This document shows positions 2-64,000 of a stretch of DNA of 64,000 nt, piece after piece. The stretch is from Giardia intestinalis (taxonomy: Eukaryota), in assembly GCA_000002435.2 (NCBI GenBank), contig CM018791.1; one strand, 5' to 3'. The notes under the pieces are model-generated. The model was given only the letters and a program-made list of their open reading frames with translations, ran no database searches and had not been told where the DNA came from. Position 1 is the first letter of the stretch. Each line of letters begins with the position of its first letter. A program made the position numbers and the translations under genes.

Positions 2-3000
2 CAGTTTGAAATCACACTTAAGCCATTGGCTGCACCAAAGGAGCAAGACACACTCTGTACATATACCCCCATACAGCAGCTCCCGCTGACACCCTCAAGG
101 AACAAGCCTACCAGAACCATTGACTTAGTGTCTCTTCTGGGGATAACAACGCACACAGAGCTTATCAATGTGTTCCTGGAGTGTATAGATCACTTCACTC
201 TCAAAGACCGCTTTGCAATGGCTGTTCGCTATCTGTCTTCGGAAATTCTTCACCGCAAGGTCCAAAACCACCAGTATTTAAGTATATTTACCACTTCCAT
301 CATAGCAGCACTACTGGAGCTACGATTGCCCCACACAAGCCGTGCATCATATACGATAGACTGCGTTACGGATTACCGCGAGGCACAAATAAGATTGGAT
401 AAGGTGCGCTTCAAATGCAACGCCGATCGCCTCCAGGCACTTCAGAATCTTGCACACGAAAAAGAGCTGCTTTACAAAAAGCTCTGCCTCACCTTTCAAA
501 CTAAGAATCTGACTACCAGCTCTGCTGTCGAGTTGTGCTCCATCGGAATCAAATCTGCTCAACCTATCTTAAACCACATCAGAACGAGCAAGCTAACCCT
601 TCATCTGGAGTCACTAGATCCCCCTGCTTTCAACTTCCAGCAGACAATGGCAGATGCAGTCATGGACTACCTGGCCAATGCACAGACGACTGATCTTCAA
701 ATCCAGCTTATTCAAGAGGCCTCTATCAATACCTCTTCCCCTATTCACTGGTGTCACACATATCTTGCTAGCTTTTTATGGAACACATCCAAATATTACC
801 TCACTGCTCAAAACACTTCTATAGTCAACTACATGGCACAAACGGCTGCTGATCGTCGCTTGATGATGGAGCGGGGAATAGCTGCACTATCTAATATCTC
901 GTACCTGAGTGCAGATCGAGCGATGTTTCTACTTTTCCGACAACTTACAGCTACCATCGAAGACTATATCGGATATCTGACGCTTACGCCGGATCTCCTT
1001 TTGGTGACTGGGATTCCGTTTTACCCAAAGGTCTCGCCGGATATTTTAGGGTCCATTGTTTTCACAGAAGACTCTGAACAAAGGGAAAAGCGACTAGTAA
1101 CGGAAAATGGCGTCTCCCTTGATCCTGATCAAAAGGTAGTGATGTTCGACGGATACTCTCTCAAGAAAAGACTTGGCTACCGGTTTTTTCCCGAGGTGCA
1201 GATGGCAGCAAACAACACGGCCCACGGACATTCGGTTCCACTAACTAACATCATCAACGATACACCGGCGCGCTCGCTCTTCATCAGAATTGAAAAGGGC
1301 ATCAATTTCATGCAGAAACTAGACTTTTATCTAACAAACTCCTTCATTCTCCTCTTTGAGATCCTAATTCCATACATTCAAGAGACGCTGCTAAGTAATT
1401 ATGACCAGAAAATGCAAAGAAGTCTTGAGAAGATGATTAAGATGGAAAAGATTAACAGCAAGCGGCAAAAGCTGCCCGATGAGACCATTGAGAAATTGGC
1501 TATCCAGGCGCAGAGTTCCCTGAAACACGGATATGTAGAACTGGAAAAGCAAATAGAGGTATACATATATAGACTTTTCAACAAGGTTTTCGAGGATACA
1601 GTTTTTCCACTGTGGTTAGGGCTAATTCATAGCTTGTTGCACAGTATTGATGTACCAGAGAAATGTGATAGATATGCTCTTCATAGCGGTACAAGTGCAA
1701 TGTCAGAAGAGGTGGCATCAATACAACAGCACCACGAACATTGTAGTGCAGACGCGACCACCCTTGATGCTCTTACAAAGAACATGAAGGGCTCCACAGG
1801 GTCAGGAATCGACGAAAGCACTCTCCGTGCCACAGATCTTTGCACTGAGCGCACGGCATCATTTTTGCAGATGCCTGAATCAGTAGAACTGGATTCAGAC
1901 TCGGCGCCTTCTTCAGTACTGGTAAGTGGGATGAATGTGGACGCAGACAACCTCCTACTCTCACACGTTTCCGCAATGCGTGGATGCAATTTATCTTCCT
2001 CACTTCAAAGTGGGCCATTGGTGCTTACTAAGTTATTTACCCCAGAGATCGCCAACTTTTTTCTACAACTGCAGGAGAAGTTTGCTAATATAAAGCAGAA
2101 ATACCAGCAGGTGTCTAGCATACTATTCACCACTCCTTACACCCGGCCAATCTTCGAAAGCTTAGATTTGGATCTAAACTACTTTCAAGCAGATATGGCG
2201 CAAAACTCTTTGGACACGGCCAAGGAGTCAATAGAGCATATTCTTAACGTGCTTTCAACGCTGGTAATACATGTTATCTTTGAAACGAACAGCTATGGGC
2301 TCATCAGTAATATCGCTTTCGATCCATCTTCGGACTCTATTTATTCCGGTTTACTCTGCTTTATCTTTGATTTGGTGGACTTTTACTCGGCCACACCGAC
2401 CCTCGTGAACGTCCTCCTCAATCGCCGGGTCAATGCGCAGGTAGACATTGTTGACCTCATAGCAGACTCAGCTGGAATGGGTGTCAAGCGGCCTCATGTA
2501 AGGGGTGGCAGGGAACATGCAGTGTCAGAAGCAATCCAGGGACCAACGTACCTATATGATAACGAGCCTGCACTTGATAACGATCAGCTTGTCTCACGAA
2601 GTGTTATTGGCATGAACACGACACTGCTGAGACCGCTGGTGAGTCCCGACACGAAAGATATGTCTGCAAACTCCTATCTCGATGTGGCAAAAGATGTGGT
2701 AGACTCCTTTGTAATCGAAAACTGGAATATCTTCAAGCGAGAATCAGTCTATTCTGAATACATCAAAATGTTTTTTGATTTGGACATAACTTCTTGCACA
2801 CAGAGCTATCAGCTGCATTCCTCTCAGCCCCCATGCGCTTCAAAGAACCCCAAAAAGGCTCCTGTCCATGCACAAAATGCTTCTGCTATAGATCCTTTTG
2901 AAACTGCTGATCTAAAAATCCCTCATGCAATTACAAAACGAAAGCGGCAGCTATCTCGTGTAACCAGTCGATTGCGCAACGATCCGCCAGCTAGTGGCCT

Positions 3001-6000
3001 CAAGCTGATGAGCGTAGCAAAGCTAGCCCTCACAAACATGTCTATCTACTTAAAATCACTACAGAACGACTTCTCGACATTCTATCACGCCAATCTTTTG
3101 GCACTACGGGATCTATTTAATGAAGCCTATCTCTTTCCGCGCGAAGTCTACACAGGTTCTAAAACCATGCTGTCTCTCTATTCACTATTCAGATCTAAGC
3201 TCAAGGCTCTAAGGAAGAATCATACCAAACAGATCAATGGTAGGCTGGCCAAAGAACTAGGGCTGTCCACAGATGTCAAGGACGACGTCGAGAGTAGAAA
3301 AATACCAATAGAAGATATGGTTGCTTCTGCTGAGGTCGTCGTTTCGGAAACGGGTGCTGTCTCTCATCCCTCCATTGATTCCTCACACTTTTACCTCGAC
3401 GAAACCTCTTGTAGAGATTACTTTCTACCTATACACCACCCCATTGCTTCCTACCTACAGGGTGACATGATGGATAAGTTCCTATTTACAACAGAGCCTG
3501 CCGAGCACTCATCACGGAAATACGAGGAAGAGCTTCGTAAATCTGTCGCAGCGAACCGTACTGGGGCCTGCCATGCACGAAATCTTATCTTTGACGAACT
3601 TCTACTCTTCACTGGATACCTGCGGCAGCCTGCAGTTGTGACTGCTCTTTGCCAATTCTATATCCCAGGCGACAAGCCGCCAGAGCTTCTGTCTAAACAT
3701 ATTATCGATATTACCAATACATCCTCTATCATCACACGTATTCTAAGCAACATCTACGGCTTGTCTGAAAGCTATTATGCCGTGACTGCTTTGCCTCCGG
3801 TTTGTTTCTACGGTACCATTAAGATTGATTACAGCAATTATTTGGCAACGGTCGCCCGACAGGCTCATGAGCTCTATGTACTCTATCTAAATCGACTTGA
3901 CGACTATTGCAGACTAATACACGAATGTGGTGTAACATGTATAGAATATATTACAAAGAACTTAATGAACACGCATTTCGATTCGGCAGCTTCTCTTGGC
4001 GCGGTCTACTTTATTTTCAAGAACTTTGCCACATTCTATCCTAAATGGCGCGATTACTATGCATGGTTTAACGATGTCTCTGTCTGCCTGGGAAATATGA
4101 TAATTGATGGCAGGAGAGCTGCTCTTCTGAATGAGAAGCTCTTATACTATCGCACGCAAGGGTCACTTATGCTCATGAAGACATTTAAATCCATGGAAAA
4201 TCGGTCACAATCGATTTCACAGTGCTATCAGAAACTTATAAGCCAACTGACGCTCATAGATAACTGGGTTCTCAGTACTCAGGACGCCCTCTTTCAGAGA
4301 ATACGGGAGTACATACGCCTCAATACTCAGGCTATCGCCCTGTGTGATGAGGCACCCGCCAAGTTTGCGCAGCAGTACGAGACATTCACCAGAAACTTTG
4401 TCTTTCCACGCGCTGTCCGCAATCTTCACGACAAGGGCGACCTTCTGGATATAACAGCTGTCCTTAAGTCAATTGATTCCGCCACGTGCTTACCATTTTT
4501 ATCCAGCCTCTCGGACTGTTTAAGAAGACGCGAGCCCTCAATTCTGCAGCTCTTCCACAGGGATACCGACGCCTCTGGTATCCCTATTTTTCGCTCTGTT
4601 GACTTTCCGGCGGCGTTTACCGAGTGCGAGGACATAGCGCATCATTTAATTCTCCTGTGCGAAGCCCTAATTAGGACGAGGAAAGACGCCCTTGCTCTTA
4701 ACATGTATCCGTACAACGATAAGACTCTGTTTCCGACTGATAAGGCAATACTGGACGCAATAACGGAGGATAGAAATCTGTCGGCTATAGATGCAGTCAT
4801 ATTCTACGACAAAGACGTTGACACAGCAAAAACACGTACAGCACGACGGGACTACTTTCTCAAGCAGTTGCTGGACCCCGGGGAGTCTCTTAAACTTTCT
4901 TCGAGCACGGTGGATGCAATACTCCACCCCAGCACTCAGCAGGGGCCAGTACTTACTCGCTTAAGAAATCTCTTGCCTCTTCTCTTTCTTATCAACAAGC
5001 TTGTGGCTCTCTACTTCGACTTTCTGAGTAACTTTGAGCAATGGATGAATTGCACGATAGGCCGCCTTAGCCTGTCCGACGTCAAAAACTTTGTGGTGCA
5101 GGTAGTAATAACCGCCACGATTATTCTTGAAACTCTTAGGGATAGCGTGCCCATCTCTGAACTGGCCAGGACTCTCCTTCAATTCATCACTAAAAAGCGG
5201 TCTCAGCTCCAATTATTTTTCATACTGAAGTCGAGCCTTTACAAGATCAACTTTATTCAGTCACCTAACGCAGCTAGGAACGTTTGCCTTAGCTCCTTTG
5301 AGGCCATGGAGGTTGTCACCAACAGGCTGCTACTGCTCAGCGACCTGGAGCCCCTGCGGACAAACGAATTGGGTCAGCTCCTCGGTATTATTCAAGCAAA
5401 CATAGATGAGTTCCTTTGCATTGACCCGCGAGATCTACATGTAGTGGATTTTTACGTCCGAGATCTGTTGAAATATAATCGGTCTAAATATTCTGATGAA
5501 ACAAAGGTGAAAATATTTTTGGAGATAGTGAGCAATCACGAATGTTCCATTATGAGGTCCTACCGGATAGGCCTGCACCGAATTCGTGCGGAGCGATTTC
5601 AATACATCCAGTCCTCTTTGATTCAGCGAGCATTAGCAAACAAGGAAAATAGAGTCAATCCAGATGAAAGGCTCGAGTTTCCTTGCCACTTTCTCGTCTC
5701 CAGAACGGGAGGGTTCGTTTTGGAGACGACCGTTCTGCAACCACAAGTCCTAGAGGTTGTCAGTAAGTATGCATCCACCAGTGATCAAGGCACAACGCAG
5801 ACGGCCGAGAAGCTACCAGCAGCGAGTCGCAAGGCCCTCTATTCCTTTCACTCTGAAGAGCTGAGTGGGAAACTTCAGGACTTAACAAAAGTCAGTATGT
5901 CAGACACGCTCGACGCTAGTCTAGAGATGTATGAAGAGGGCAGAGATACTGACTCTGCCAAGACAGTGGAGCCCGATGAAAAGCTCACTATGACGGCAGC

Positions 6001-19754: not shown

Positions 19755-19879
19755 AGGGTCAGACGAAAGGCGGTTTCTTCCTCACGTTGGGCTCAGCGGT
19801 AGCTGATTTATCTCTCTTCATCTACGAACCCCTTTTCTGTGAGCTGCAAAGTGAATTTAAAATACAATCTATTTTTAAA

Positions 19880-22250: not shown

Positions 22251-22254
22251 CGGA

Positions 22255-49735: not shown

Positions 49736-52700
49736 TTATACGTGACACTTCAGTATCGAGCGAATTATCTTTACCAGGTTTCCAGTTGCTTGGCTATCAG
49801 ATTCAGTTACTGTAAGCATAATGTGTTCAAGCTTGTTACTCATGTCAACATACCCAACATTAGGGCGAGACACAACGTCCCCACTATATGCTTTATCAAT
49901 GATTAATTGGTACTCCGGTTGAAGTAACACAAGAAGGATGTATTCAATACGCTCTATGCACTGAAGACAATTATTTTCATCCAGGGTGTCATTACTACTA
50001 AAGCTCGTAAGCGCAAACAAAATGCCATCGAAAAGAGGAATTACAGAGCTACCAATGTCACGAGTAACTGTTAGAAGCTGGGAAGTGACAGCGCCTCCCA
50101 CACCCACAGTTGCTCCGGTAACGCCAGAAAGAGAGTAAATTATATACTCAAGCAAGCAACTGACGGCAGAAGAGATAGGAGGGATGAAGGCCGCGGTAGG
50201 TAAAGGATAGTAGGATATCCCCTGCTGCATTGAGGATTGAATTGGGGGAACGGTCTGGCCGAGTATGTCCGAAGTCACGCAAAGAAAATTGCAAAGGCTC
50301 CTCACAATTTCGTTACTGTGGACACCATCAGCGAAGACAATGGCTAAGCACTTGTCCACCTCTCCTAACACCAGAGTCAGTATGAGTGGCAATGGGCTTT
50401 CTCTGCAAAACTTTATTCCAGGTTGGACTGAGGCCTTCAGAGACATTAGTATGTGAATATTGGAAATGATATTGGGGACAATAGCCGTGTAGAAGTGAGA
50501 GGGGACAAGGCTCTTGGTGTTTTTCTGGGTGAGACCGCTTTTCTGATGTCTATCAGGAGTAACAGACACAATAGTGGCAAGCATCGACAAAAACGCATAG
50601 CCCACGGAATGGATACGAAACAGAAAGCTGGACATAAGGGCATTGTATTGGCTGGTTGTGATAATCTCGCCAACGGCGCTCTTGCCAGCGGCCAGTTCAT
50701 AGATCTCCTCGAGTGAATTTGTACCATCTACAAAGAAACTACGAAATGTCTGATCGATTGAATCTGTCCCATCAGCCATTCTCTCTCTTAAAGTATTGAA
50801 GGAAAGAAGCTTAAGCAGCTCATTCCAACCAGATCCTTCCTCAACTAGACGGCCCACATAGGACTCAATAAGCAATTGGTCTCTACACCAATTCGCAAGC
50901 CTGGCAACCAGAAGTAATAGCCCGCGAACAAACAGAGTGCCGGCTGGGGTGATGTTGTAAGGCAAGATACCTGCAGCCATTCCTGTTGATATGTGATCGG
51001 GCGCATTCGTCTGCTGGAAAGCTCCAGCAAGTTCTGGCACATCTGCTAGTGATCCTAGTTTATCCACTGTTGCTGTTCCCAGTGGAGCCACTGCCAATGC
51101 TTTGAAGTGAGACTTAGCGGTATCAATCCTGCGGCTCATGGCCACAGATTGCGTTACGAGCGATGTAGTTTTGAGAGGCGCAACTAAACTAAACAGCGTT
51201 CGCCCAATTCCTAATACTGTTTCAAACAGGTCTGTCATTGTCCCCTGATTAACAAGTCTGTGCAAGAATTCGGTGAACAGAGTAGATACCTCTTCTGTGA
51301 CAGACGAAAATGCAAGCAAAATGTCAATCAGCTCAATGGTGCTTTGAATCATTGTAAGCGCAGCATGCCCTGTATATTCTTTGATCTCTGGGCTTAGGAC
51401 TTTGCTGCTGCATGTTCCAACGGTAGACATTGCAATTCTGAAGGCGTCTGAAAAGTAGGACTGAACATTCAACTCTGAAGACAGCTTTTCAAGAAAACTG
51501 ATCATGAAGGCTCCACGCTCTGATGCAACGTTTGCAATGTGACAAATGGTTTGCATTACACTTGCCGTCGCACTGAAAGCATGCTGCAATGAACACTCGT
51601 TATGATCGGGGACGATGTTGGCCAGAACACGGACCGAAAGCTTTAGCCAATTGAAGCAGGATGCACTCAAGAAAAATATATCGCCGGAATCAGCGCTGCA
51701 TATCTGCTGCTTGATAAGAACAGCTGCTTGCTGGATTGCAAATAGCATCTCGTCGAGAATTTCCGGGACTATATTTGTGAGGATACGATCTTTAACGTAG
51801 ACATAGCAATTCAAGGGCACGATAGACGAGACTAGATATGTGTTCATGAGAGCAGACAAGGGAATGACTTTACCACAGTTGGAGAGGAGGCCTGCTCGAA
51901 TGGAGTCACAGATAGTCCTGTAGGCTCCTGACTGAAGATTGTTAAGAGCACGGAGAAAGGCAGTGAATCCTTCCATTAAACAGGCGTTGTTGTTGATGAG
52001 AACTGAGTCACGCATTACCTTTTCCCTTTGATCCTGAGTAAGTGGCGATAAAATAAGCTGAGTCCGAAGCTTTGTTTGACTTACGAGTGGAGCGTATCGC
52101 AGCCCTTGGCCTGTCAAATTGGAAACCGCTGGTAAAATGGCGTGTTGAGACACGTCAGAAAGCTCTGGCTTAGGCGTGTCGGAGAGTATTTGCATACACT
52201 CGATGATGATTTCGTAGAGATTAAGATAGTCTGTGCCTGTGTTTGCTGAGAAGGCTTCAGCAGCTGCCATTGTAATTACTTGAATTGCGTCGTGTGAGAA
52301 CGAATCGAATTTGGCAGGAGTCCTTGGTGGGCGCATTTTCTCCCTATCTGCTGGAGGAAGCGTTTCAAGAAGTCTATCTAGGCTATCCTCATTACATTGT
52401 GGATAACAGAGGGTGCCAATTACAAGCCCAAAAAGGCCACTGATAAGTTCAGAAACCGTTATGTCACGTACAAGATTGCTAGAGTTAAAGATAATATGAA
52501 GGTATATCGTCATCAATCGCAGGCATGAAGCAGTGGCAAACAGCACAGCAGTAGTTTTGTTCATAAGCTGCAAGTCTGTCTCGTCTCTCACAGGGTCCCC
52601 CATAGCCCCGTTATTCAAAGCCGCGTCTTGAAGCCGTCGTGCTCGCCTTGCGATCAAGCCTGTCTTTATGAACAGATCAGTGAAGAATTCGCCTCCGAGA

Positions 52701-55700
52701 TCAGTAAGGACGTGCATTGCATCTTGTGACTGTGGTGCTTGGGGCCCTACAAAGGTGTATTCCAGAAATTGTGAGAGAAGATTGTAACCATGCTCAGCAA
52801 CCCCTGGGTAAAGCCAAAGGCTATCATCATTGCGCTTCAGGAGGGTTTGAAGGGCATGATATAAAGATGTTGTGCGGTCCAATCTGAGCATGCTTCGGTG
52901 CTCTACGACGCGACGGGACTCCTCACCCAGAAAGAACAGCTTAAGAAGCCGGGGCGATGGCGTCCAAAGAATCCTGCTTGAAAGCAAGCTAGTTTCCGAT
53001 GGTAGCTCGCATGACACAGCCACCAGGAGAGCCTCAGCACAAGTTGGGCTGTGTAGGAAGCTATGTCGAGCACGAATAAGCATCTCCCTAAATGAGCATG
53101 ACCCTTCTATTTCACGCGCAAGTGCATCCGAGCCCATAGACTTGCGCAGCTCCAAGAGAAGCACTTTCGCTGCGTTGTGGAGGCTGCTCGTACAGAAGTG
53201 GTCCAGAAGACAGAAAAGCAGTAGAATGAATGATGATGTCCCCATTCTAACTGAGACTTGCTCTCTGTAGACAGTGACTCGGTTAGCCGTAGCATACTTT
53301 CCAGTGGTATCCTGAGCAGCGTAACGACCTGGTAGATCCCCGTCATATGGACATGTGGCTCGAGAGTTTATCAAAAGGTTTATCGCGTTGGTGACGTTAG
53401 GAATAAGGAACGTCGGATGCCTTGCTAAAACAAGAAGTCGTGCAATGAAGAGAAGGCTGCTGATCACAGACTGCTCTGATGACTCTGGGGGTGTCTGAAT
53501 AAGGGGCTGAGTATTCACCAGAGTATAGATGTGCTGTGAATGCAGCGCAGCAATCGCAGAGTTGGAGACAAACATTGCTGTGGTAGAGAGAAATTCGTGA
53601 TCGGAGAGGAGAATATCCATCATTGATTCAGCGAGAATTGAAAAGTGATCAAGAATGAGAACTTCTGAAATCCCTATGAGAAGATCCTCGTCGGTAGATG
53701 TCAAGGATGAACGCAGACAGATATTAAAGAGCTTAAGGATGCTATCAAAGAGGTGCAGGAGACTACTATGCTTGTTCAGGGTGCGAAGTACCGCAAGAAG
53801 ATTGGTAGACTCGTTATAATTCCGATCGCTCGAGGATAAGTCGCTTAGAACTATCAGTGATATCTCCCTGGCGACTGTGCAAACAGAACGATGCATGTAC
53901 TCAACTCGGACCTTTGCATGGATGCACAGGGACGACGACAAGTATGACTGAAGAAGATCAATCAGTGCAGATTTCCCCCCGATAAAAGATGAATATATGA
54001 TAGAAGTTATCATGTCTTCCAGCGCATGCAGTGGGGTCGCCAACTCCACACTACTAAAACCACCTGCTTCATAGAGGGGTCCTGTTTGGAACGTTATTTC
54101 TGTTAAAGAACTACATATGGTAGCTATGTCTGGTGTGAGGGGGGTGCTAGCCAAGCCTCTAAGAAATATAATAGACTCCGTGGAGTTGGCGCTGGCCAGA
54201 AGAGAGAGTGCCGCCTCCAAGAGTCGTAAATATCGCAGGTTTGTTTGAGCTTCCAAAATGTTATTGTATTTGGGATGTCTGGTAGCAGGGTCGATCGTTA
54301 TGGTGAGAGTCACGGCCAAGCGCAAAAGGACGGAGAAAGCAATCTGAGATACAATCTCTGGATTTATGTCGTAAAGAGCCAGGGTTCGAACGGATTGTTC
54401 CAAGATAAGAAGATCGAAATCGGAGGTGCTCGTCAATGGTGTAAGGTTCGTAGTCAGAGTCTTGAGAAGCTGGTTTCTCGTTGTCTTTAATGTTTGAGGA
54501 ACATAGTCAGACTCGTTCTCAAAAGAGATGACGTCCCTTGCAGTCAGAATTGCAGTAACATCATCAGGTCTTACAAGACCTGGAGCCGATCCTCCTCGGC
54601 CCTCGTAGTTCACGTGCACGCCAGACACGCTGATATGCTGGATCCCAAAAGCAGTCTCCCTAACCATTTCTACTGGCGCATGTTTAGCATTAGACCTCGG
54701 AGCAGGTGAGAATTCATCTTTTATAAACAGGTCTGCACCACCGATTGTGATGATAAGCTTATTGATAAGGTAAATGCTGAATGGTGCAGCGTAAGAGGTC
54801 ACAGCATTGTATATCTTACTATTTAATTTGGTAGACACCATGCTAATATCAAATCCGCCGTACCCTACAGTTTCCTGGCCATATGCGCCAATGTGAGCAG
54901 CCTTCTGCGAGTTAACAAGATCAGCCAATGGTTTGGTGAGGGTTGTGTCTGCTGTATTTCTTAACAGCGTCTTCATGCAATTAACTCCGTAAGCAGGACA
55001 GTGAGCAAGACCCTGGGTAATAGAGATAGCCCCTAGGATTTGGCCAGGAGTGTCCAGCTCTGAAAAAATCCATCCCAGTATAAGGGAGACGATATTATCG
55101 CTATTGAGACCTCGAAATGCGTGATCTCCGCCAACGGCAAGCATGCATCCGACGCAGGCCATAAGTCGAGAGCAATACATGTGCATGTTTGGGAGCTCAA
55201 CAGCTCCAAGTGTCATCCCCAAATGCCCAGCACTGTGAGCGCCTCCCCCAAGCATTGGCTCTAGGCTTCCTGCAGCAGTGGCAAAGTTGTGCCTATCGTA
55301 GCGACTTATTCCAACGTTAGCGATACTTTTCCGTTGACCGTGGGAGCTCTGAAGTGCATCAATCTCAGACCGCTCGTAATCCAGGCACTTATCCATCAAA
55401 AAGCCTACAAGTTCATAGTACGTCCGTGCCTCCTCGAATCTGCACTGCTTAACGATAGGATCCATCCAGCTGAATGTTGTTCCGAAAAGAGCCCCCAGCG
55501 TGTTATACAAAGATGGCAAAATCGCCAGAAAATCGTCATGAACAAGTGTGCACAAACCGTCGGTAACCTTGCCTAGGCTCACAGTTATAGGTGGAACAAA
55601 GCGGAGAGTTCGATCTGTCTCTAGATAAAGAGAAACACCGGCCATTGCCAGACGCAGGACCACATCTGTGAATTCCGTCAAGGAGATCTGATCCAGTAGG

Positions 55701-57028
55701 TAATCCCTATATTCCGCTTCGTTGGAGGCATTTATGCCGGTCATTGGGTTGTTATTACCAGGGTCATCCATATGTTTCACGTGGTAACAGATCCTCGCAA
55801 AGTTAATAAATACCCCAAAAGATGGCGCTGGAAACTCTGCAATGTGAAGAATAGGCTTTACGGATGTATAGTCCAACAGGGAGCTTATAACGTTGTCATC
55901 CATCAAATGGCGGGAGAGGTACGTTCTAACGAGGCTCAGCTTTTCCTCAAATTCAATTACTGAAGGGTATTCTTTAGCGCCCGGCTGACGATGAACGGGC
56001 TGGGCAATACTGGTGGCCACGCGGCCAAAGGCAGTCTGCTTCTCCTGTTCTGCAAAGAGCTGGTTTCTGCTCAAAGACCCTAACTTCATAGTCTCTTTCC
56101 GTGCACGTAGCGCAGGATCAAGTTCTTGCTGGCACAGTTCGGTAAATGTAAGTTGAACTATCTCTGCAAGACTCTCCTGCGAATATGACGGCTTGAACGT
56201 AGAGAACACACAATACAGCCAGAAGAATGCAGTACGTGCAGCGCTGCTCGTGGCGGCAGTGGACATAATGGGAATCAGGTCACAAGCATAGAGGTTCCGA
56301 GCACTCTGTACAGCTTGGTCAGGCCCGGGTAGCTCAGCACAGTTAACGTAGGCCGAGACATACGTCACAGAAAGGATATGCGTAGCCATCGTAACGTTGC
56401 TCATCACTCTCTGAAGGACTACCGGAAGTGCATAGAAGCATTTGTGTAGCTGCTCTAGGACGGCCTCACTAGTCTGAGCAAGACGGCAGCACATTGCCAC
56501 GAATTGCGCAGACGGTCTTTTGGCCGTGGACAAGCAATACAGAACGATTGATGCGTGCCTCAGATCTTCGGCTACTAGCTGGGCAGTCAGAAGTTGTACT
56601 GGGGAAGGTTGGGCAAGGACAGCTGGTGTAAGGACTGTACCCTGTCCCGTTACTAGACTGGTAACAGAATCGACTAGCCGAGTGGGAAGGTTGCTTTGCC
56701 AGATCTCTGTCAAACAGGTAGCTAAGTGGGTGTTGGAAGGAGATCCTTGAAGAGCATGGCAGAGAGATATAAGGGCTCTATATGCATGGGCACGTAGTGA
56801 GAATTTTGCTGCTACAGAAATGGCTTCGTCTGAAAGGCCGGCCTCTCTCCCCTGTTCCTTTACTTCGTCAGATATTTGTGGAGAAAGGCCGAGATCGATG
56901 TGTCCCAGAAGCGTCTGCGGCAACCTCTGCAGTGAGGGTACGTGGGCCTCGATGTCCTCTGGGTCCAGCTCTCTAATACTCTTGAATAGTGCACAGCATT
57001 CTGAGTAATACACTAGATCTCCGTCCAT
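49736..57028 (-). CDS. Large hypothetical protein (2,430 aa), alpha-helical and Leu-rich, with no family recognised
   Basis: The 7.3 kb uninterrupted frame has an ATG start. The antisense and off-frame ORFs inside it are all under 135 aa. I saw no kinase, P-loop, ankyrin or Cys-rich motifs. Confidence 0.75.
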   Translation of the reverse strand: MDGDLVYYSECCALFKSIRELDPEDIEAHVPSLQRLPQTLLGHIDLGLSPQISDEVKEQGREAGLSDEAISVAAKFSLRAHAYRALISLCHALQGSPSNTHLATCLTEIWQSNLPTRLVDSVTSLVTGQGTVLTPAVLAQPSPVQLLTAQLVAEDLRHASIVLYCLSTAKRPSAQFVAMCCRLAQTSEAVLEQLHKCFYALPVVLQRVMSNVTMATHILSVTYVSAYVNCAELPGPDQAVQSARNLYACDLIPIMSTAATSSAARTAFFWLYCVFSTFKPSYSQESLAEIVQLTFTELCQQELDPALRARKETMKLGSLSRNQLFAEQEKQTAFGRVATSIAQPVHRQPGAKEYPSVIEFEEKLSLVRTYLSRHLMDDNVISSLLDYTSVKPILHIAEFPAPSFGVFINFARICYHVKHMDDPGNNNPMTGINASNEAEYRDYLLDQISLTEFTDVVLRLAMAGVSLYLETDRTLRFVPPITVSLGKVTDGLCTLVHDDFLAILPSLYNTLGALFGTTFSWMDPIVKQCRFEEARTYYELVGFLMDKCLDYERSEIDALQSSHGQRKSIANVGISRYDRHNFATAAGSLEPMLGGGAHSAGHLGMTLGAVELPNMHMYCSRLMACVGCMLAVGGDHAFRGLNSDNIVSLILGWIFSELDTPGQILGAISITQGLAHCPAYGVNCMKTLLRNTADTTLTKPLADLVNSQKAAHIGAYGQETVGYGGFDISMVSTKLNSKIYNAVTSYAAPFSIYLINKLIITIGGADLFIKDEFSPAPRSNAKHAPVEMVRETAFGIQHISVSGVHVNYEGRGGSAPGLVRPDDVTAILTARDVISFENESDYVPQTLKTTRNQLLKTLTTNLTPLTSTSDFDLLILEQSVRTLALYDINPEIVSQIAFSVLLRLAVTLTITIDPATRHPKYNNILEAQTNLRYLRLLEAALSLLASANSTESIIFLRGLASTPLTPDIATICSSLTEITFQTGPLYEAGGFSSVELATPLHALEDMITSIIYSSFIGGKSALIDLLQSYLSSSLCIHAKVRVEYMHRSVCTVAREISLIVLSDLSSSDRNYNESTNLLAVLRTLNKHSSLLHLFDSILKLFNICLRSSLTSTDEDLLIGISEVLILDHFSILAESMMDILLSDHEFLSTTAMFVSNSAIAALHSQHIYTLVNTQPLIQTPPESSEQSVISSLLFIARLLVLARHPTFLIPNVTNAINLLINSRATCPYDGDLPGRYAAQDTTGKYATANRVTVYREQVSVRMGTSSFILLLFCLLDHFCTSSLHNAAKVLLLELRKSMGSDALAREIEGSCSFREMLIRARHSFLHSPTCAEALLVAVSCELPSETSLLSSRILWTPSPRLLKLFFLGEESRRVVEHRSMLRLDRTTSLYHALQTLLKRNDDSLWLYPGVAEHGYNLLSQFLEYTFVGPQAPQSQDAMHVLTDLGGEFFTDLFIKTGLIARRARRLQDAALNNGAMGDPVRDETDLQLMNKTTAVLFATASCLRLMTIYLHIIFNSSNLVRDITVSELISGLFGLVIGTLCYPQCNEDSLDRLLETLPPADREKMRPPRTPAKFDSFSHDAIQVITMAAAEAFSANTGTDYLNLYEIIIECMQILSDTPKPELSDVSQHAILPAVSNLTGQGLRYAPLVSQTKLRTQLILSPLTQDQREKVMRDSVLINNNACLMEGFTAFLRALNNLQSGAYRTICDSIRAGLLSNCGKVIPLSALMNTYLVSSIVPLNCYVYVKDRILTNIVPEILDEMLFAIQQAAVLIKQQICSADSGDIFFLSASCFNWLKLSVRVLANIVPDHNECSLQHAFSATASVMQTICHIANVASERGAFMISFLEKLSSELNVQSYFSDAFRIAMSTVGTCSSKVLSPEIKEYTGHAALTMIQSTIELIDILLAFSSVTEEVSTLFTEFLHRLVNQGTMTDLFETVLGIGRTLFSLVAPLKTTSLVTQSVAMSRRIDTAKSHFKALAVAPLGTATVDKLGSLADVPELAGAFQQTNAPDHISTGMAAGILPYNITPAGTLFVRGLLLLVARLANWCRDQLLIESYVGRLVEEGSGWNELLKLLSFNTLRERMADGTDSIDQTFRSFFVDGTNSLEEIYELAAGKSAVGEIITTSQYNALMSSFLFRIHSVGYAFLSMLATIVSVTPDRHQKSGLTQKNTKSLVPSHFYTAIVPNIISNIHILMSLKASVQPGIKFCRESPLPLILTLVLGEVDKCLAIVFADGVHSNEIVRSLCNFLCVTSDILGQTVPPIQSSMQQGISYYPLPTAAFIPPISSAVSCLLEYIIYSLSGVTGATVGVGGAVTSQLLTVTRDIGSSVIPLFDGILFALTSFSSNDTLDENNCLQCIERIEYILLVLLQPEYQLIIDKAYSGDVVSRPNVGYVDMSNKLEHIMLTVTESDSQATGNLVKIIRSILKCHV

Positions 57029-57096: not shown

Positions 57097-57798
57097 TTAC
57101 TGAACCAGGTCCGTTGTCTTGATGGTGATGATATCTGGATAGCTCCTGATCAAGTCCTCGATCCCTTCCTGAGAAATGCGCGCAGCAGGCGGCTGACCAC
57201 TCTGTTGTGGTGGCTCCGGAGGCATGCTGAGACGTTGCTGGCGTCTTATCTGCTGCTCCATGGTAAGAGGCTTCAAGGCCGGTGGGAAGATAAGCGCCGC
57301 AATTGGGCGGTAAATGCGACTAAGAAGAACCTGCACCACGGTCGTTGAGACGTTTCCGGGCTTGTAGGATGCCCCACTGAAAATATTGAGAGCCCTGGCA
57401 ACGATAGAATCGGGTATGTTGACACGGCAAAGAATGCTGTTTTCTCTGAAGATGCTGAAGAAAAGTCGCACTGCAAAGCTGGGGATAAATGCGAGCCATT
57501 TTGCATGAGAGGGCTGCTCTACGGGTTTGAGTAGAAGATCAAAGAGCTCATTTTCCTGGGCTATATAGTAGGTGTTCAGGACTCTATGACGGTACGTGCC
57601 TCGCTCCTCCTTGTTCATATCCTTCTTTATCTGCTCAAGTTTCTCCTGGTGAGCGGATACTTCCGTTTTATGTGTATGCCGTGTATAGGCCATGGCCAAC
57701 TCTATAACAAAGACAAGCGGGCCGATGAACATGATGTTTTGCTTATGCTCCTTTGTCTGCATAGACCACCAAGCCTGTATGGAACCCACGATCCCCAT
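57097..57798 (-). CDS. Hypothetical small protein (233 aa from the proposed ATG) with one predicted TM helix near the N-terminus
   Basis: Track ORF 57097..57867 begins at TTG. The internal ATG at about 57798 (MGIVGSIQAWWSMQTKEHKQNIMFIGPLVFVIELAMAYT...) is preceded by atttttaaa on the coding strand. The C-terminus is Gln/Pro-rich. Confidence 0.5.
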   Translation of the reverse strand: MGIVGSIQAWWSMQTKEHKQNIMFIGPLVFVIELAMAYTRHTHKTEVSAHQEKLEQIKKDMNKEERGTYRHRVLNTYYIAQENELFDLLLKPVEQPSHAKWLAFIPSFAVRLFFSIFRENSILCRVNIPDSIVARALNIFSGASYKPGNVSTTVVQVLLSRIYRPIAALIFPPALKPLTMEQQIRRQQRLSMPPEPPQQSGQPPAARISQEGIEDLIRSYPDIITIKTTDLVQ

Positions 57799-57830
57799 TT
57801 TAAAAATCGTTTTTAGGCCAGAGCTAAGAC
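57799..57830 (-). promoter_or_regulatory. AT-rich initiator-like region upstream of the proposed ATG (57798) of the small minus-strand gene
   Basis: The coding-strand sequence is cctaaaaacgatttttaaa followed by ATGGGGATCGTG. Confidence 0.35.
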
Positions 57831-58079
57831 CTAAAGACTGGGTGTATGGCGTCTCTTCTTGTTCCAAAAGCTTTCTCTCACCTTACCAAGGGGCAAGATG
57901 GAACGTCCACTTTCAAAAGGGTTTCTTCTCCCATCAGATCAAAGTCAATCTCATCATACCTAGCCGCTAATACACGTTATTTAAAAGTCGCGCCAGCCTC
58001 TCTTCCCAAGAAGCTGGATCTTGATAGCTTTATTAACCAGGAAAAGGTTCGCACTAGTAATGTGCGAGATCTGGAGACC

Positions 58080-61000
58080 ATGGCCGAGCTGATGAACCTG
58101 GCCCCGAGTGCAACGGTGGATCCAAAGGAGGTGAGAGCAAACTTCGTTTTAGAACAGATACTGGAGCAAAACCTGGAGGTATGTTCTGGGAAGGGATATA
58201 TGAAGCCCGGAATTACCGAGCATGCTGATCAGTGGCACGAAGTAGACATTGTTGGAGTTTCCAACGATGCGTTTCGCGTTCTGTTTCCACAGCTCGAGAT
58301 GTTTCGGCAGGCAAAAATACATAATATTATTATTGAGGGTCTTCAAGTGAAGCAAACCCCCTTGACTCTGGACACAGATATGGAAGGCACAGTGGAAAGT
58401 TCAGGGATTTCATTAGATTGTCTCACAGGAGATGACTTGATGGAGCTTTTTAAGCTATCCTTTCGGTCAGAAGACAAAACTTTCTTCAGGTCTCCTACTG
58501 GGGTTTACCATATTCGTAACGACAAAGCCGTATCAGCGTTTTTGGAATCTAGAAAACGAGACCGTGAAGCCGTGCTGGCTGCTTCTAGAACTGCAGTGGA
58601 ATCCCAACACTTCCCAGAGCACACGTATCCAAGTACCCTGGACCTATCGGGCACCGATGAGACAATGGACATGCAGTTAAAAGATTTGGAGGTAACTGCC
58701 ACAAGAGCTACTGGCGTTAATCCAGAAGATACCTCCGATCTATCAGTCTTTACCATCACGTCTAACCCTAGAGATGAACTACAGCGTTCTAAGCCACATG
58801 AGTTTCAGTTCCGGCAATTCCTTAAGGAAGACACACCTTTAATATCTCTTCCCACGGGAGAGCCTCACAGTTACAAGAGCAATCTCAGGGGTTATTTGGA
58901 AGCCTCAGAAACGGAAATATCATCTTCCCAACTGCAAAACAGACAGTATGGAGCTACCAAAGGATACCACGCATCTGTCCTTCTATCATCCACAGCAAAT
59001 CAGACTAATATCACAAGTGCACTTGTGCCTGCAACTAGTGATCGCAAAAAAGATCAGATACCAGCTGATGACTCAAGCAGACTTGTCAGCGAAAGCTTCG
59101 ACATCCTAAGCACCCTCGATATCCTAGAAAGACGAGACAAGGAGGCCGTGGCAATAGCATCCCCACCAAAGTTGGCCCACACAGAATGTGCACCAATAAT
59201 AAACACAACAAACAGCGCATACGCATACGCACACGCACACGCACACGAGTCATCAGAAAAGGTAGCCTTTCAGTATATCGACCGCAACAATCAAGTGATT
59301 GTGCGCGACATCAACGAGCAATTCCTTCAGAAGTTCTCCAGGATACACATCTATCAACGGATGAAGGAGAGCTTTGAGGCGGCGCTTAAAAGGCTAAACC
59401 AGCTTGTCGAAGAAAAGAGCACTGCTAATAGACCGTACTTGGACTTTCTTTCCACTGCATACATTGGGCACACTCTCTTCTATAATCTCAAAACGCGCTT
59501 GAGTGAAGACTACTGCATCGATTGCGTAGCTGAGATCGAGGAGCGTCGACTGCGTGTGAAAAATCGCGAACGAGACTATAATTTATTCATATCCACACTC
59601 CAGGCCATTAAAGACAAATCAGAGCAGCTTCAAGATATACGTAGCAAGTCTGTTTGCGGATTCACAACAGTGGTCACGGCCCCTCCTCTCCCCATCCTGC
59701 CGTCCATTTACAAGGAAGACCAAAAAGAGGACAAATCCGTTGCTAAAAGAGCCACTTTCTGTGCTGCATCTGCGCTGGAGGATGAGGCATCGGAAGAGTA
59801 CGTATTAACTTTAATGCAGCTTCGCCAAAGGCGGGAACGCGTATATGATCATTTTGAGAACATGATAGCGGGGCACAAGCAGGTGCGTTCTGCCGCAGTC
59901 GAGCTATGCTTGAGTGCCATTAATACTAGTCGTGTCAAGCTAGAAAGTCTTGTTAATCCTGCGCTTAAGCGTACAGCTCAGTTTGATGGCTTTGATGCTC
60001 TCGATAACCTGTACAAAAGCTACATCGATCATGCGCTGAGGACCGATTTTGCCACTGAAATTATTGAGCAAGCAGATAGAGACCCAAGCCACGAACTGTA
60101 CTGGTGTGCACGGCAACTCCTCCGACTCAAGCATTCCAGCTACAAGAACTATCAGAAGTACAAGTATCCTAGCTTCTGTCCTCATCGCCGGGAAGCCTTT
60201 GAAAATGCTCGTACGGCCTTGATGGAGAACAAGATATTTTGGGGGGCATCTGAGTACAAGCGTGTGTTCAGTGATCTCATGTCCACGGTGCAGGAGCATC
60301 TGCAATACCTTATACTCACCCCAGAGCTGCTTACACATCTTCAGGACACATTCATCCCGAAAATAAGTGATTATCTCTTTGCGAATATGGTTTTCCAGAC
60401 AGACATAGACAAGGACACTAAAGCTCTTCTCTCTAGACCAAGTACTGGAAGGGTCAATCTGCAGAATGCACTACAGACGCTCCCCGGCGGGGCCAGCCCC
60501 GATAAAATTTCCTATGCATCAGAAAGCTCTGTGCGAGCAGATAACGGCCATCAGAAAAGACCAAGAGAGGACCCCGAGGACCGTGATGTTAACGTCCAGG
60601 CCACCAATCAAACACTAAATCCTGTTCTCAAAAGACCAGTCAATCAAGAACTAACAAGTGGGGCAGACCTACCGATTCTCAACGCTGCCTACAAACCCAA
60701 GAATGCCTACGAATGGATTCAGCGTAGATACTGGCAGATTCAAAGCAACCGTGAGCAAGATATCTTCCGACGCAAAGAAGAACTGGCACGCCGAGACGCT
60801 GAAGAGGCTGCTAAGACCGCGTCCGCCCTGATGACCAAAGACTTCAGCTATAAGCCTGGAGGGCGCACGCAAGCTGAGGAAATATACGAGAAGATCTTCA
60901 AGTTTCCTGCTCCAGGCGAGACGAACTTCATGGAGAAACTCAGCGTTTATCTGGCTAACTGTTTTATCTTGCTTTATGAAGTCCTCTTTCCATTTATTCA

Positions 61001-64000
61001 AGAGTCCCTCATGCTAAACTTTTCGGACCTTGCCTTTGAGCAGATGACCAGGAAGGTGAAAGCATACTGCAACTTAACGGGGATTTCACGGGACTCTCTC
61101 GCTGCAGATATTGCGTTTGAATTTCAGTGCCAAGCTCTTGAAGAAAATAGGCTCCTACTTCGTAAGGTACAGAAGAAATTTGAGATTCTTCTCTTTAAAC
61201 TACTATACACCTACGTAATGGAGGACATTTACCCCCAATGGTCCGTCTTTATCCTCCTCCTCTTTCATGGAGCTGACCGGGACATGCGCTACATTGCTCA
61301 ATCCAAGGCCCTAACCTCGTTTAGCCACGTTCTAAATACTTCGCGGTTTAATGACGAGTACATGGGCATTCTTAAAAAGGCGCACGATCTGAACATCACA
61401 ATGGGGTACGCAAAGCTTTACACTGACGTTGAGAAGCTTGACAGCCTATCTATGAGCTCTCTTGGCGGATTTGTGGCTCCTAACTGTACAGCTGACTTCA
61501 CGCAGAACTCCCCACTGGCCATTCAATTGAATAGAACACTTGCAGACGCAATGATGAAAAATATCAGTCTTATCAGTGATATAAATAGAACCAATGGCAA
61601 AGCACCTCAAGCAATGGTACTTGACGCACGTGGAGCTAACGCTCACTCTACTATCTGTTCAACACATCCCACGGCAGTTGTGCAAGATGTTCCTGAAACA
61701 ACCACAGGTGATGCTTACCTCTTCACGTCTGCAGATGTCCTCACCATTTCTGTCCAGCGAATCCAGAACATCACAGAGATGCATGACTTTATCTACTCTC
61801 AACCTACTCAGTGGTACTTCTCTGAGAGAATTATAACAGACATTAGGTACCTAAACAAAGAAGAGGAAGTTCAGTTCTCGTTGGCTGAGTCACGGATGAA
61901 GGAAATTATCTCTTTATTTGCCAATACCGAATGCGTACTCTCTGCCGTTAGAAATCAACGCGGGCTTTTGACTAATCTACTCTTCACGCCGTCTCCAAAT
62001 GATATTTTCTCCAGTTTACCTATGTTTGTCTACGACCTTGTGGATTTTTATTCCTCGTGTCCAGTTTTTGCTGACAACCTATTTCCAGAACCAGGATCAT
62101 CAAGCAAGGATCCTGCCACACGCCCCTTTGGTGCCAAGTACAATATACCTACTACAACCGATAATATGAACAACTTTACGTTTGAGGCTATTGCCCGGTT
62201 GGGAAACGACGAGCCCCTCCAAAGGGTTATCCACGAAGTCATCACTACAGACAATAGTCTACCTATACGGAGCGGATCTGATCTCATGGTGACCCTAGGC
62301 AACAACTCATCGTTGCTTGCCGGTATCAGTCGTCGGTCCATGAAGAAGACAAACGCTAAGAAGGACATATTACGGCGTACGTTGCTTAGGAGCACAAGCC
62401 ATCAGGTTTCCTCACGAGCTGCCGTTCGCGCTAGCGGAAGAAGCATCAACTTTGGTTACTCGTCGCAGGAAAGTCCGGGAGAATCTCGACGGCGTGCACG
62501 TAGCAAGCTCACACAGTACAGAACTCGCAATGCCAGCCCACCCACTGTGCCCATTCGCACGTCCCAAGTCGTTCCAGAAGGAGACGTCCCCTTTATGGAC
62601 ATGACGGGGAAATCAGACCTTACTACCGTCGCCAACATCTCTTTTAATATCAAAACTAGAAATACTACATATTCACAGCAGGTCGCATCGTTCTTTGACA
62701 CCCATGGTCGGATTGGAACCTACATGGAGGCAAGAAAGTGTAACCGCTTGCACTATGAGCCACCAACCATCCTCTATAGACTAGCAAATCTCACCAAGCA
62801 TGCAGCACTCAATCTCAAAAACTACTTAGATATGGTTCTTGCTTTCTTGATGCGATATGCTAAAGAGAGTCTCAAATTTGCAGAGCGGCTGTTGAACGCG
62901 CAAGAACTGGTTCCCAGCTTCATAATTGAAAGAAATTGGCAGGTGCAGAGCTTACTGAACAAAACGCAAACTCGCATAAAGGAGTACTATAAAGCAGCGC
63001 GCATGTCGCTCCATGCAACATTCAAAGACAGGCACTGTGAGGAAAAGACGAAGGCCTCTGGGAAGGAGGCTTTACAAGAGCAAAGGCTATTATCAGAGCA
63101 TGCCCACGACCACGGAGCGCCTTCGCTTCCCCCAAGAAGGCCCTCATGTGGTGACAGTACGACTGAGCCAAACAGTATATTCGGTGACACCTTTATAGAC
63201 AGAGAGCTTCCGTTCGTTTATGAAGCTGAGCTTCTGTCCCAGTTCTTGCGGTCTGATGTCCTTCTAACAGCATTCACGGCTGATTATGTCACTGGCTCAG
63301 CTCCTCCAGAAATTCTTTTGTCCCAGATAATGTCACTAACAAATAAGTCGAGCTACGTTTCCAGAGCACTTCTAGCTGCATATCATTTATACGATGGCTT
63401 CTGGTGCTTAACCGTTATGCCCACAGAGTGCTTTTTCGGAACGCTCAAACTAGACCTTAAGCAAGTACTTGTTCGGCTACGGCATATTTACGAGAACATT
63501 TTCTTGTTAGCAGCGTCGCGTATCGATGATTATATATACTTAGCCTCACGGGTTGCCCAGACATGTGTACAGGCAATGCAGCTCTCCTTTGGCTCCGCCA
63601 AGTTTTCTACTCTGGAGGAGATAGGGATGTCCTTTAGCCTCTTTAGGACATTCATGCACAACATTCCTGTCTGGGGTGAATACCTCAGTACCATGCAAGG
63701 TGTGGAGAATCATCTCTCAGAGGTCGCGTACGGAACGAAAATAAGCTCAGTCTATGCAAATTTGCTTCGATATCGCATCCAGGTGTCTAGGATGCTCTTT
63801 GCCAATCAAGGATTACTCCCCAAGATAGGCAGCTCTCTGCACACTGTGCATCACATAGCCAGAGGTGTAATTAGTCAGATTGAGAGCTGGGTCTATTCTG
63901 CCTCTGAATCCATTTTCCCACGAATCGTTGAGATGCTCTCACTCACGGCACACGACAAATTAAACTGCAACAGAAACGTCTCTGACTTCAGGCGACGCTT
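58080..64000 (+). CDS. Giant hypothetical protein, paralogue B (3'-partial; about 1,970 or more codons inside the window). It is NOT in the supplied ORF track.
   Basis: I translated this frame by hand from an ATG at about 58080 (MAELMNLAPSATVDPKEV...) to the window end and found no stop. It is missing from the track because it has no in-window stop. The other two + frames in this region hold only short track ORFs (59186..59377, 61594..61836, 63013..63198). Four blocks are collinear with paralogue A: YLILTPELL...FIPKISDYL against YLTLTPDLL...FYPKVSPDIL; KLSVYLANCFILLYEVLFPFIQESL against KLDFYLTNSFILLFEILIPYIQETL; MFVYDLVDFYSSCP against CFIFDLVDFYSATP; VMPTECFFGTLKLDLKQVL...ASRIDDYIYLA against ALPPVCFYGTIKIDYSNYL...LNRLDDYCRLI. 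Start is accurate to +/-1-2 nt. Confidence 0.7.
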   Translation, partial: MAELMNLAPSATVDPKEVRANFVLEQILEQNLEVCSGKGYMKPGITEHADQWHEVDIVGVSNDAFRVLFPQLEMFRQAKIHNIIIEGLQVKQTPLTLDTDMEGTVESSGISLDCLTGDDLMELFKLSFRSEDKTFFRSPTGVYHIRNDKAVSAFLESRKRDREAVLAASRTAVESQHFPEHTYPSTLDLSGTDETMDMQLKDLEVTATRATGVNPEDTSDLSVFTITSNPRDELQRSKPHEFQFRQFLKEDTPLISLPTGEPHSYKSNLRGYLEASETEISSSQLQNRQYGATKGYHASVLLSSTANQTNITSALVPATSDRKKDQIPADDSSRLVSESFDILSTLDILERRDKEAVAIASPPKLAHTECAPIINTTNSAYAYAHAHAHESSEKVAFQYIDRNNQVIVRDINEQFLQKFSRIHIYQRMKESFEAALKRLNQLVEEKSTANRPYLDFLSTAYIGHTLFYNLKTRLSEDYCIDCVAEIEERRLRVKNRERDYNLFISTLQAIKDKSEQLQDIRSKSVCGFTTVVTAPPLPILPSIYKEDQKEDKSVAKRATFCAASALEDEASEEYVLTLMQLRQRRERVYDHFENMIAGHKQVRSAAVELCLSAINTSRVKLESLVNPALKRTAQFDGFDALDNLYKSYIDHALRTDFATEIIEQADRDPSHELYWCARQLLRLKHSSYKNYQKYKYPSFCPHRREAFENARTALMENKIFWGASEYKRVFSDLMSTVQEHLQYLILTPELLTHLQDTFIPKISDYLFANMVFQTDIDKDTKALLSRPSTGRVNLQNALQTLPGGASPDKISYASESSVRADNGHQKRPREDPEDRDVNVQATNQTLNPVLKRPVNQELTSGADLPILNAAYKPKNAYEWIQRRYWQIQSNREQDIFRRKEELARRDAEEAAKTASALMTKDFSYKPGGRTQAEEIYEKIFKFPAPGETNFMEKLSVYLANCFILLYEVLFPFIQESLMLNFSDLAFEQMTRKVKAYCNLTGISRDSLAADIAFEFQCQALEENRLLLRKVQKKFEILLFKLLYTYVMEDIYPQWSVFILLLFHGADRDMRYIAQSKALTSFSHVLNTSRFNDEYMGILKKAHDLNITMGYAKLYTDVEKLDSLSMSSLGGFVAPNCTADFTQNSPLAIQLNRTLADAMMKNISLISDINRTNGKAPQAMVLDARGANAHSTICSTHPTAVVQDVPETTTGDAYLFTSADVLTISVQRIQNITEMHDFIYSQPTQWYFSERIITDIRYLNKEEEVQFSLAESRMKEIISLFANTECVLSAVRNQRGLLTNLLFTPSPNDIFSSLPMFVYDLVDFYSSCPVFADNLFPEPGSSSKDPATRPFGAKYNIPTTTDNMNNFTFEAIARLGNDEPLQRVIHEVITTDNSLPIRSGSDLMVTLGNNSSLLAGISRRSMKKTNAKKDILRRTLLRSTSHQVSSRAAVRASGRSINFGYSSQESPGESRRRARSKLTQYRTRNASPPTVPIRTSQVVPEGDVPFMDMTGKSDLTTVANISFNIKTRNTTYSQQVASFFDTHGRIGTYMEARKCNRLHYEPPTILYRLANLTKHAALNLKNYLDMVLAFLMRYAKESLKFAERLLNAQELVPSFIIERNWQVQSLLNKTQTRIKEYYKAARMSLHATFKDRHCEEKTKASGKEALQEQRLLSEHAHDHGAPSLPPRRPSCGDSTTEPNSIFGDTFIDRELPFVYEAELLSQFLRSDVLLTAFTADYVTGSAPPEILLSQIMSLTNKSSYVSRALLAAYHLYDGFWCLTVMPTECFFGTLKLDLKQVLVRLRHIYENIFLLAASRIDDYIYLASRVAQTCVQAMQLSFGSAKFSTLEEIGMSFSLFRTFMHNIPVWGEYLSTMQGVENHLSEVAYGTKISSVYANLLRYRIQVSRMLFANQGLLPKIGSSLHTVHHIARGVISQIESWVYSASESIFPRIVEMLSLTAHDKLNCNRNVSDFRRR
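59217..59246 (+). repeat. Hexanucleotide microsatellite (GCATAC)2(GCACAC)3 inside giant ORF B
   Basis: I read gcatacgcatacgcacacgcacacgcacac directly. In the long ORF frame it encodes AYAYAHAHAH. Unit-number changes would preserve the reading frame. Confidence 0.6.

Follow-up and report, generated by a model that had tools for sequence, protein, structure and literature searches.

A pair of giant paralogous genes in Giardia intestinalis, possibly encoding helical scaffold proteins

A stretch of 64,000 nucleotides (nt) of the Giardia intestinalis genome (GenBank assembly GCA_000002435.2, contig CM018791.1; this whole stretch is named here the window) is bracketed by two very long open reading frames (ORFs), which a preliminary description made from the sequence had proposed to be collinear paralogous genes. 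The locus raises two questions: are these ORFs, designated here genes A and B, real and related genes, and what kind of protein do they encode? It can hardly be doubted that A and B are intact, intronless, same-strand genes and full-length collinear paralogues. The best explanation of the data as a whole, to which we assign a probability of about 0.55, is that these ancient paralogues code for giant scaffold proteins. The scaffold assignment, which is inferred, is itself tentative, its chances lying somewhat below even.

Genes A and B and their duplication

Gene A (positions 2–19198, plus strand) is truncated at its 5′ end by the window border and reads in frame 2 through 6,398 codons without stop, from nt 2 to a TAG at 19196–19198. 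Gene B (57846–64000, plus strand) is truncated at its 3′ end; its frame (frame 3) is stop-free from 57828 to the window edge at 64000 (2,057 codons). Such frames cannot have arisen by chance because stop codons are expected at a frequency of ~5% at the window base composition, the probability of the open run of A being ~e^-348. The absence of B from the program-made ORF list, pointed out in the preliminary description, is explained by the exclusion from that list of ORFs running off the window (A is listed as 26..19198). The possibility of an overlooked in-frame stop had also been raised there for the downstream gene; none is present in the B frame between 57828 and 64000.

The full extent of the two genes was taken from gene calls on public read-archive contigs that are 99.98–100% identical to the window. 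Gene A codes for 6,975 amino acids (aa) (contig L008, 100% identical). The window, which holds codons 578–6975 and the TAG, therefore lacks the first 577 codons (1.73 kb), more than the ~430 residues (~1.3 kb) estimated initially. Gene B codes for 6,973 aa, of which codons 1–2051 are in the window. It is called from the ATG at 57846 on a public contig that shares 24,265 nt with the window at 100% identity. This ATG, and not a position near 58080 as first suggested, is retained as the B start because the Giardia muris orthologue described below aligns with B from residue 1 of both proteins, in agreement with the gene call. The two genes have ~20.9 kb each and are spaced by 38.6 kb (from the A end at 19198 to the B start at 57846), as expected from the earlier picture of a same-strand pair of ~20 kb genes about 39 kb apart. 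The assignment of A is further supported by its collinear homology to B and to two other proteins of the family (P0002 and P0003, see below), and that of B by its G. muris orthologue.

The region upstream of B (57763–57845) is a divergent intergenic segment of 83 bp with an AT-rich TAAAAAT sequence at 57801–57807, read directly from the DNA. It is bordered on its other side by a minus-strand gene coding for 221 aa whose call ends at 57762. At the 3′ end of gene A, the stop codon and the called start of the following gene, a small ORF of 187 aa at 19191–19754, overlap (19191–19198; ATGCATAGTATG). This organization illustrates the extreme gene packing of the genome.

Many independent public assemblies with 99.98–100% identity to the window carry calls of the same two genes. 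Gene A is broken up in two of them (SRR13990248 and SRR13990249) by single-base deletions at window positions 18033 and 18400, and one could ask on this ground if A and B are pseudogenes, spurious ORFs or one gene duplicated in assembly. The deletions are single-base losses in homopolymer runs (C6 and C5), gene A being unbroken in the other public assemblies, and they are most likely sequencing errors, although they may alternatively reflect a truncation, heterozygous or strain-specific, that removes the last 300–380 residues of A. Runs of 6,398 and 2,057 codons without stop are beyond chance, and two proteins that are only 25% identical cannot be assembly duplicates of each other. Furthermore, B pairs with the G. 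muris protein GMRT_10929 and A with P0003. An artefactual origin of A and B is thus already refuted by these data.

Comparison of the B and A translations by BLASTP, using the window data alone, yielded four collinear high-scoring segment pairs (HSPs; E-values of 5e-29, 2e-20, 6e-12 and 4e-4) with 24–26% identity, a similarity that extends beyond the short motifs originally matched by eye. When B was extended to 3,061 aa with the identical public contig L001, five collinear HSPs were obtained (6e-44, 2e-20, 8e-12, 2e-5 and 6e-4; ~25% identity). Collinearity holds as far as the available B sequence reaches. The segment of A comprising residues 435–1458 (window numbering, used throughout for A; 1304–4375, plus strand) aligns to B residues 1027–2051 (60924–63998, plus strand) with 25% identity (alignment A1; BLASTP HSPs) and contains three of the four motif blocks on which the relationship was first recognised. 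The block best conserved between the paralogues corresponds to A residues 1199–1900 (3596–5701, plus strand; E 6e-44). All four motif blocks are present and aligned in a MAFFT alignment. FILLFEILIPYIQETL is matched column for column with FILLYEVLFPFIQESL, FDLVDFYSATP with YDLVDFYSSCP, and ALPPVCFYGTIKIDYSNYL...LNRLDDYCRLI with VMPTECFFGTLKLDLKQVL...ASRIDDYIYLA. In a four-way MAFFT alignment with P0002 and P0003 the identity, counted in steps of 100 residues, is 15–30% throughout the 6,398 residues of A; the homology is therefore full-length and not that of a shared domain.

The pair had been attributed to an old segmental duplication. Its old age is confirmed by the 25% identity of the proteins and by their separate groupings with orthologues (see below), while its segmental character finds no support because none of the 16 other ORFs in the window is duplicated together with the giants, only the ankyrin and kinase families giving cross-matches. 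A and B arose by single-gene duplication.

Distribution and age of the family

Further members of the family, which the preliminary description had suggested searching for in Giardia, were identified with a profile hidden Markov model (HMM) of the aligned A/B N-terminal conserved block. In an exhaustive HMMER search against 1.84 billion representative proteins only seven matches were found, three of them being fragments of A or B, and none came from outside Giardia; the two matches bearing a species name are both from G. muris. One match is the G. muris protein GMRT_10929 (TNJ30450.1, UniProt A0A4Z1SY71; P0002 in the alignments), a "hypothetical protein" of 6,207 aa. The family is thus represented in public annotation by at least this G. 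muris entry. A second G. muris protein, GMRT_14402 (P0007), has 1,806 aa and is likewise a hypothetical protein. P0003 (7,055 aa), presumably from another Giardia species, and P0006 (1,972 aa) are further matches from public read-archive assemblies. A word-indexed protein database returned no match to A residues 1–1500 and only fragments of A itself to a profile of the four sequences; giant proteins appear to be absent from that database. No paper naming these genes was found in a literature search.

The alignment of B with GMRT_10929 begins at residue 1 of each protein and covers 3,085 residues with 33% identity (1,589 bits), against only 20–24% identity between A and GMRT_10929; GMRT_10929 is the orthologue of B. 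It is ~770 residues shorter than B, and G. muris genes are shorter in general (PMC7641422). It shares an N-terminal motif with B and a cysteine cluster with A and P0003 (see next section). Being equally uncharacterised, it adds no functional information for B. P0003 aligns collinearly with A residues 5–5353 (six HSPs of 152–322 bits with 23–27% identity) and, unlike A, carries long low-complexity insertions. Collinear homology along whole proteins of ~6,200–7,100 residues holds for A, B, GMRT_10929 and P0003.

The 1,860 ungapped columns of the alignment of these four proteins provide a relative age for the duplication. Quartet sites grouping A with P0003 and B with P0002 number 92, versus 19 and 28 for the two other arrangements. 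The identities in the same columns are 25% for A–B, 26% for A–P0003 and 43% for B–P0002; for G. muris and G. intestinalis, the average similarity of one-to-one orthologues is 44.7% (PMC7641422). As A and B pair with different proteins, the two copies already existed when G. intestinalis and G. muris separated.

The short proteins P0006 and P0007 form an orthologous pair. Their similarity to the giants is confined to scattered blocks in the N-terminal third (A 405–539; B 706–1410; E 1e-9 to 1e-12). They have a quarter of the giants' length, lack the 5,000 C-terminal residues and have no Pfam domain. The P0006 gene is found at positions 1051–6969 of a 7,575 nt contig from ERR3333383 (locus L009), whose content in guanine plus cytosine (GC; 47%) is like that of the window. 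This suggests that the short paralogue is also present in the G. intestinalis complex. Altogether, the family is seen only in the genus Giardia among the sequences searched.

Sequence features and nature of the gene products

Pfam searches with A, B, the short paralogues and the family consensus up to E 10 identified no significant family. The only hits were chance-level matches to V-ATPase_C (E 0.006–0.02, below its cutoff) and ARA70 (E 0.07), and no precomputed Pfam match exists on the public gene calls of A and B. No PDB entry was matched by sequence or by two family profiles, and a motif scan of A found no Walker A, HExxH or DEAD motif. The proteins have no P-loop, ankyrin or kinase domain, and their initial description as uncharacterised and devoid of recognised domains remains accurate. 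They also lack detectable internal repeats: self-BLAST gave the identity match alone, and all-against-all hhalign comparison of 300-residue family segments nothing at a probability of 50% or above. Leu, Ser and Ala are abundant in the amino acid composition, and Gly and Trp are scarce. Hydrophobic 19-mers occur every few hundred residues. They are scattered, only partly conserved, form no terminal anchor and are better accounted for by buried helices or strands than by a bundle of membrane-spanning segments. The aligned N-termini, inspected by eye, do not resemble signal peptides. A membrane protein or ion channel was rejected on the basis of this scattered and partly conserved distribution, with neither a terminal anchor nor a conserved transmembrane bundle.

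Two short elements stand out from this background. The N-terminal basic/serine motif IRSKSISSYL of B (residues 30–39; 57933–57962, plus strand) matches RARSTASYL in GMRT_10929 and RARSTASYI in P0003 when the N-termini are placed side by side. The resulting R-x-(R/K)-S-x-x-S-Y-(L/I) pattern is common to both paralogue lineages (B, P0002 and P0003 compared). It resembles a basophilic-kinase or 14-3-3-type site and is a possible candidate for phospho-regulation. The second element is a cysteine cluster in A (CxFC...CxxCxxCxCxCxC, residues 5348–5372; 16043–16117, plus strand) found directly after a conserved hydrophobic helix (A 5313–5336). Motif scan and alignments show eight cysteines invariant across A, P0003 and P0002 (C710, C713, C721, C724, C727, C729, C731 and C733 of alignment A5). 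The cluster, to which no Pfam family corresponds, could bind zinc or be a multiply S-acylated "cysteine string".

AlphaFold2 models of two A segments were built on shallow alignments. The model of the best-conserved block, A 1199–1900 (m309e6f5fe781), has a mean predicted local distance difference test score (pLDDT) of 53, with residues 40–220 at 70–84, and features 69% helix, helices of 36–68 residues and one beta hairpin. The model of A 4640–5839 has a mean pLDDT of only 33. It predicts 51% helix and 4% strand, with beta-alpha-beta modules at A 4699–4796 and 5477–5575, each followed by helices of 53–63 residues. The start of these long helices coincides with the sole charge-rich, coiled-coil-like window found in a composition scan (A 5041–5100; 15122–15301, plus strand). 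No significant match to either model was found with Foldseek against the PDB.

We propose that the products of A and B are non-enzymatic, mainly alpha-helical scaffold or rod proteins of ~780 kDa. They would be built of many non-repeated helical bundles separated by poorly conserved linkers, with a stretch of long coiled-coil-like helices and the eight-cysteine cluster, putatively zinc-binding or S-acylated, in the C-terminal quarter. Their probable role would be that of a structural platform or molecular ruler in the Giardia cytoskeleton or at the membrane-cytoskeleton interface, the two paralogues having presumably specialised long ago. The scaffold character is suggested by the Leu/Ser/Ala-rich composition, by the 69% and 51% of predicted helix and by the lack of a conserved transmembrane bundle. 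The absence of Pfam or PDB matches and of Walker A, HExxH or DEAD motifs in A points to non-enzymatic proteins. Giant helical scaffolds are the known broad kind that A and B most resemble, no known family being matched by the tests run. Generic helical-bundle and solenoid scaffolds set beside them were the exocyst Sec6/CATCHR proteins, spectrin repeats, NUP205/192, exportins and FANCD2.

Several points weigh against this proposal. The literature search retrieved no localisation, interaction or expression data for A or B. Fold-level statements are weak because both structure models have low confidence (pLDDT 53 and 33). Internal repeats, the usual hallmark of solenoid scaffolds, are absent by BLAST and hhalign. 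Given the two predicted beta-alpha-beta modules and the cysteine cluster, the proteins may still have a cryptic catalytic or nucleotide-binding core. In addition, the restriction to Giardia may only mirror fast divergence, A and P0003 being already at 26% identity, and the query used for the large-database search was limited to the N-terminal conserved block.

Alternatively, A and B could descend from a giant helical protein common to eukaryotes (for example UBR4/BIG-like, HEAT/ARM-type or a tethering-complex component), being orthologues that were duplicated in the Giardia lineage and diverged beyond recognition; they would then not be a Giardia invention. Giardia proteins are highly divergent, as illustrated by the 44.7% similarity of one-to-one orthologues between G. 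muris and G. intestinalis (PMC7641422) and by the A–P0003 identity, and the cysteine cluster could correspond to a degenerate zinc finger as found in giant E3 ligases. Yet such families were matched neither in Pfam nor among PDB sequences or profiles, and the exhaustive HMMER search with the N-terminal block retrieved nothing outside Giardia. The tandem repeats expected for HEAT/ARM-type alpha-solenoids are found in A and B neither by Pfam nor by self-BLAST or hhalign. We consider this origin unlikely. The cysteines also allow A and B to be viewed as peripheral membrane tethers, in which a putatively multiply S-acylated CxxCxxCxCxCxC segment would anchor a very long helical arm to the membrane. 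The eight invariant cysteines directly follow the hydrophobic helix A 5313–5336. In its spacing, CxxCxCxC is similar to the palmitoylated clusters found in SNAP-25 and cysteine-string protein. The same spacing fits two zinc sites equally well, however, and the helix is broken by a Lys in the G. muris protein. The tether is judged improbable; it is compatible with the scaffold explanation and not exclusive of it.

The predicted order of elements in A 4640–5839 (low-confidence model), with an alpha/beta module, a coiled-coil stalk, a second alpha/beta module and a coiled-coil strut, is reminiscent of a motor protein. A and B could accordingly be imagined as extremely diverged dynein heavy chains, or another AAA+-ring mechanoenzyme, that lost all P-loops and kept the layout of modules and coiled coils. 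Dynein heavy chains resemble A and B in having several thousand residues and a similar predicted order of alpha/beta modules and long coiled-coil hairpins (pLDDT 33 model). The conserved strand-like motifs VIIFDN/VYIFDD/VIIFED and VIVFEI...FIVTFD have the appearance of Walker B or sensor strands, and the GTSHEGKS sequence of the G. muris protein (P0002) aligns to a strand-helix junction. Dynein motor domains stand first, without significance, in the Foldseek results of both models. The top three PDB matches of the A 4640–5839 model are dynein motor domains (non-significant E-values of 0.17–0.54), about 10 of its top 30 matches being dyneins, as are ~12 of the 50 top matches, also non-significant, of the A 1199–1900 model. 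A published report that cytoplasmic dynein-1 is missing from Giardia and that an unalignable "orphan diplomonad dynein" is present (PMC5100056) speaks for the same reading.

The comparison with dyneins was controlled with 18 near-full-length heavy chains (3,975–4,823 aa) from metagenome and metatranscriptome contigs; in the word-indexed protein database a dynein AAA1 consensus had retrieved exon-sized fragments only. With an HMM of these chains, the scores of A, B, P0002 and P0003 are all negative. In hhalign, 41 family segments reach at most 0.7% probability against the dynein alignment, versus 2.6% for reversed controls, and an AAA1-core profile (92 fragments) at most 0.6% versus 0.9% for the controls. 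None of the Pfam dynein or AAA models (DHC_N1/N2, AAA_6-9, MT, Dynein_heavy) matches A, B or the consensus, even with E-values up to 10. The Walker A pattern (GxxxxGK[ST]) is absent from A, B (3,061 aa) and P0003, and GTSHEGKS of P0002, the sole Walker-A-like string in the family, occurs at chance frequency. There is no six-fold internal repeat by hhalign. The Foldseek matches are all non-significant (E 0.17–3), dynein chains being numerous, large and helix-rich and collecting chance matches for this reason. A and B are moreover ~2,400 residues longer than dynein heavy chains, with no P-loop and no profile similarity above reversed controls. Dynein/AAA+ ancestry was therefore rejected at the sequence-profile level, and we rate such an origin as very improbable. 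It is a long shot that A and B are either P-loop-less dynein/AAA+ relics acting as static cytoskeletal struts or a new genus-specific, megadalton class of cytoskeletal proteins, for example of the ventral disc. If they were motor relics, Giardia, reported to be without cytoplasmic dynein-1, would carry two "pseudo-motors" of 780 kDa.

At ~780 kDa each, far above the 18 dynein heavy chains compared, the scaffold candidates A and B must rank with the largest proteins that this very compact genome encodes, and keeping two of them intact across species has a high cost. Orphan genes are common in Giardia, and this pair is mildly surprising for its size and for its conservation as a pair. The finding is descriptive as yet and opens no mechanism. 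If A and B proved to be parts of Giardia-specific machinery such as the attachment disc, the median body or the flagellar exit sites, they would offer parasite-specific targets. As structural parts they would help to explain how the Giardia cytoskeleton is measured and assembled, while as degenerate motors or diverged pan-eukaryotic giants they would show how far homology detection reaches at present.

Genes lying between A and B

The segment between the two giants contains a cluster of five large ankyrin-repeat genes (30384–49582), four of them of the "Protein 21.1" type (1,382, 1,042, 1,191 and 1,275 aa) and one coding for a NEK-like kinase (1,401 aa). Mutual identities of 28–37% in the ankyrin regions point to a local expansion. 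These neighbours have strong Ank_2 and Pkinase matches whereas A and B have neither, the sole cross-match being marginal (E 0.003). A third large orphan gene, an ORF of 2,430 aa on the minus strand (49736–57028), has no Pfam match and resembles neither A nor B nor another ORF of the window. At least 15 public contigs encode exactly the same product. A D-Tyr-tRNA deacylase gene is also found between A and B.

Just downstream of gene A, the box C/D small nucleolar RNA GlsR8 (Rfam RF02337, named GlsR8_miR10) is encoded by the minus strand at 19757–19826 (full-length match, 104 bits), in a short gap between two small ORFs. Together with the VSP, ankyrin "Protein 21.1"-type and NEK kinase genes and with the public contigs of 99.98–100% identity, this RNA identifies the window as chromosomal DNA of G. 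intestinalis (syn. lamblia, duodenalis). Tandem repeats and tRNAs are absent from the window. The gene for a variant-specific surface protein (VSP; 24529–26949, minus strand; PF03302, E 1.5e-84) and a small protein kinase gene (28530–29684, minus strand) coincide with two GC-rich islands (24001–26000 and 28001–30000) whose GC content of ~60% compares with 45–48% elsewhere in the window.

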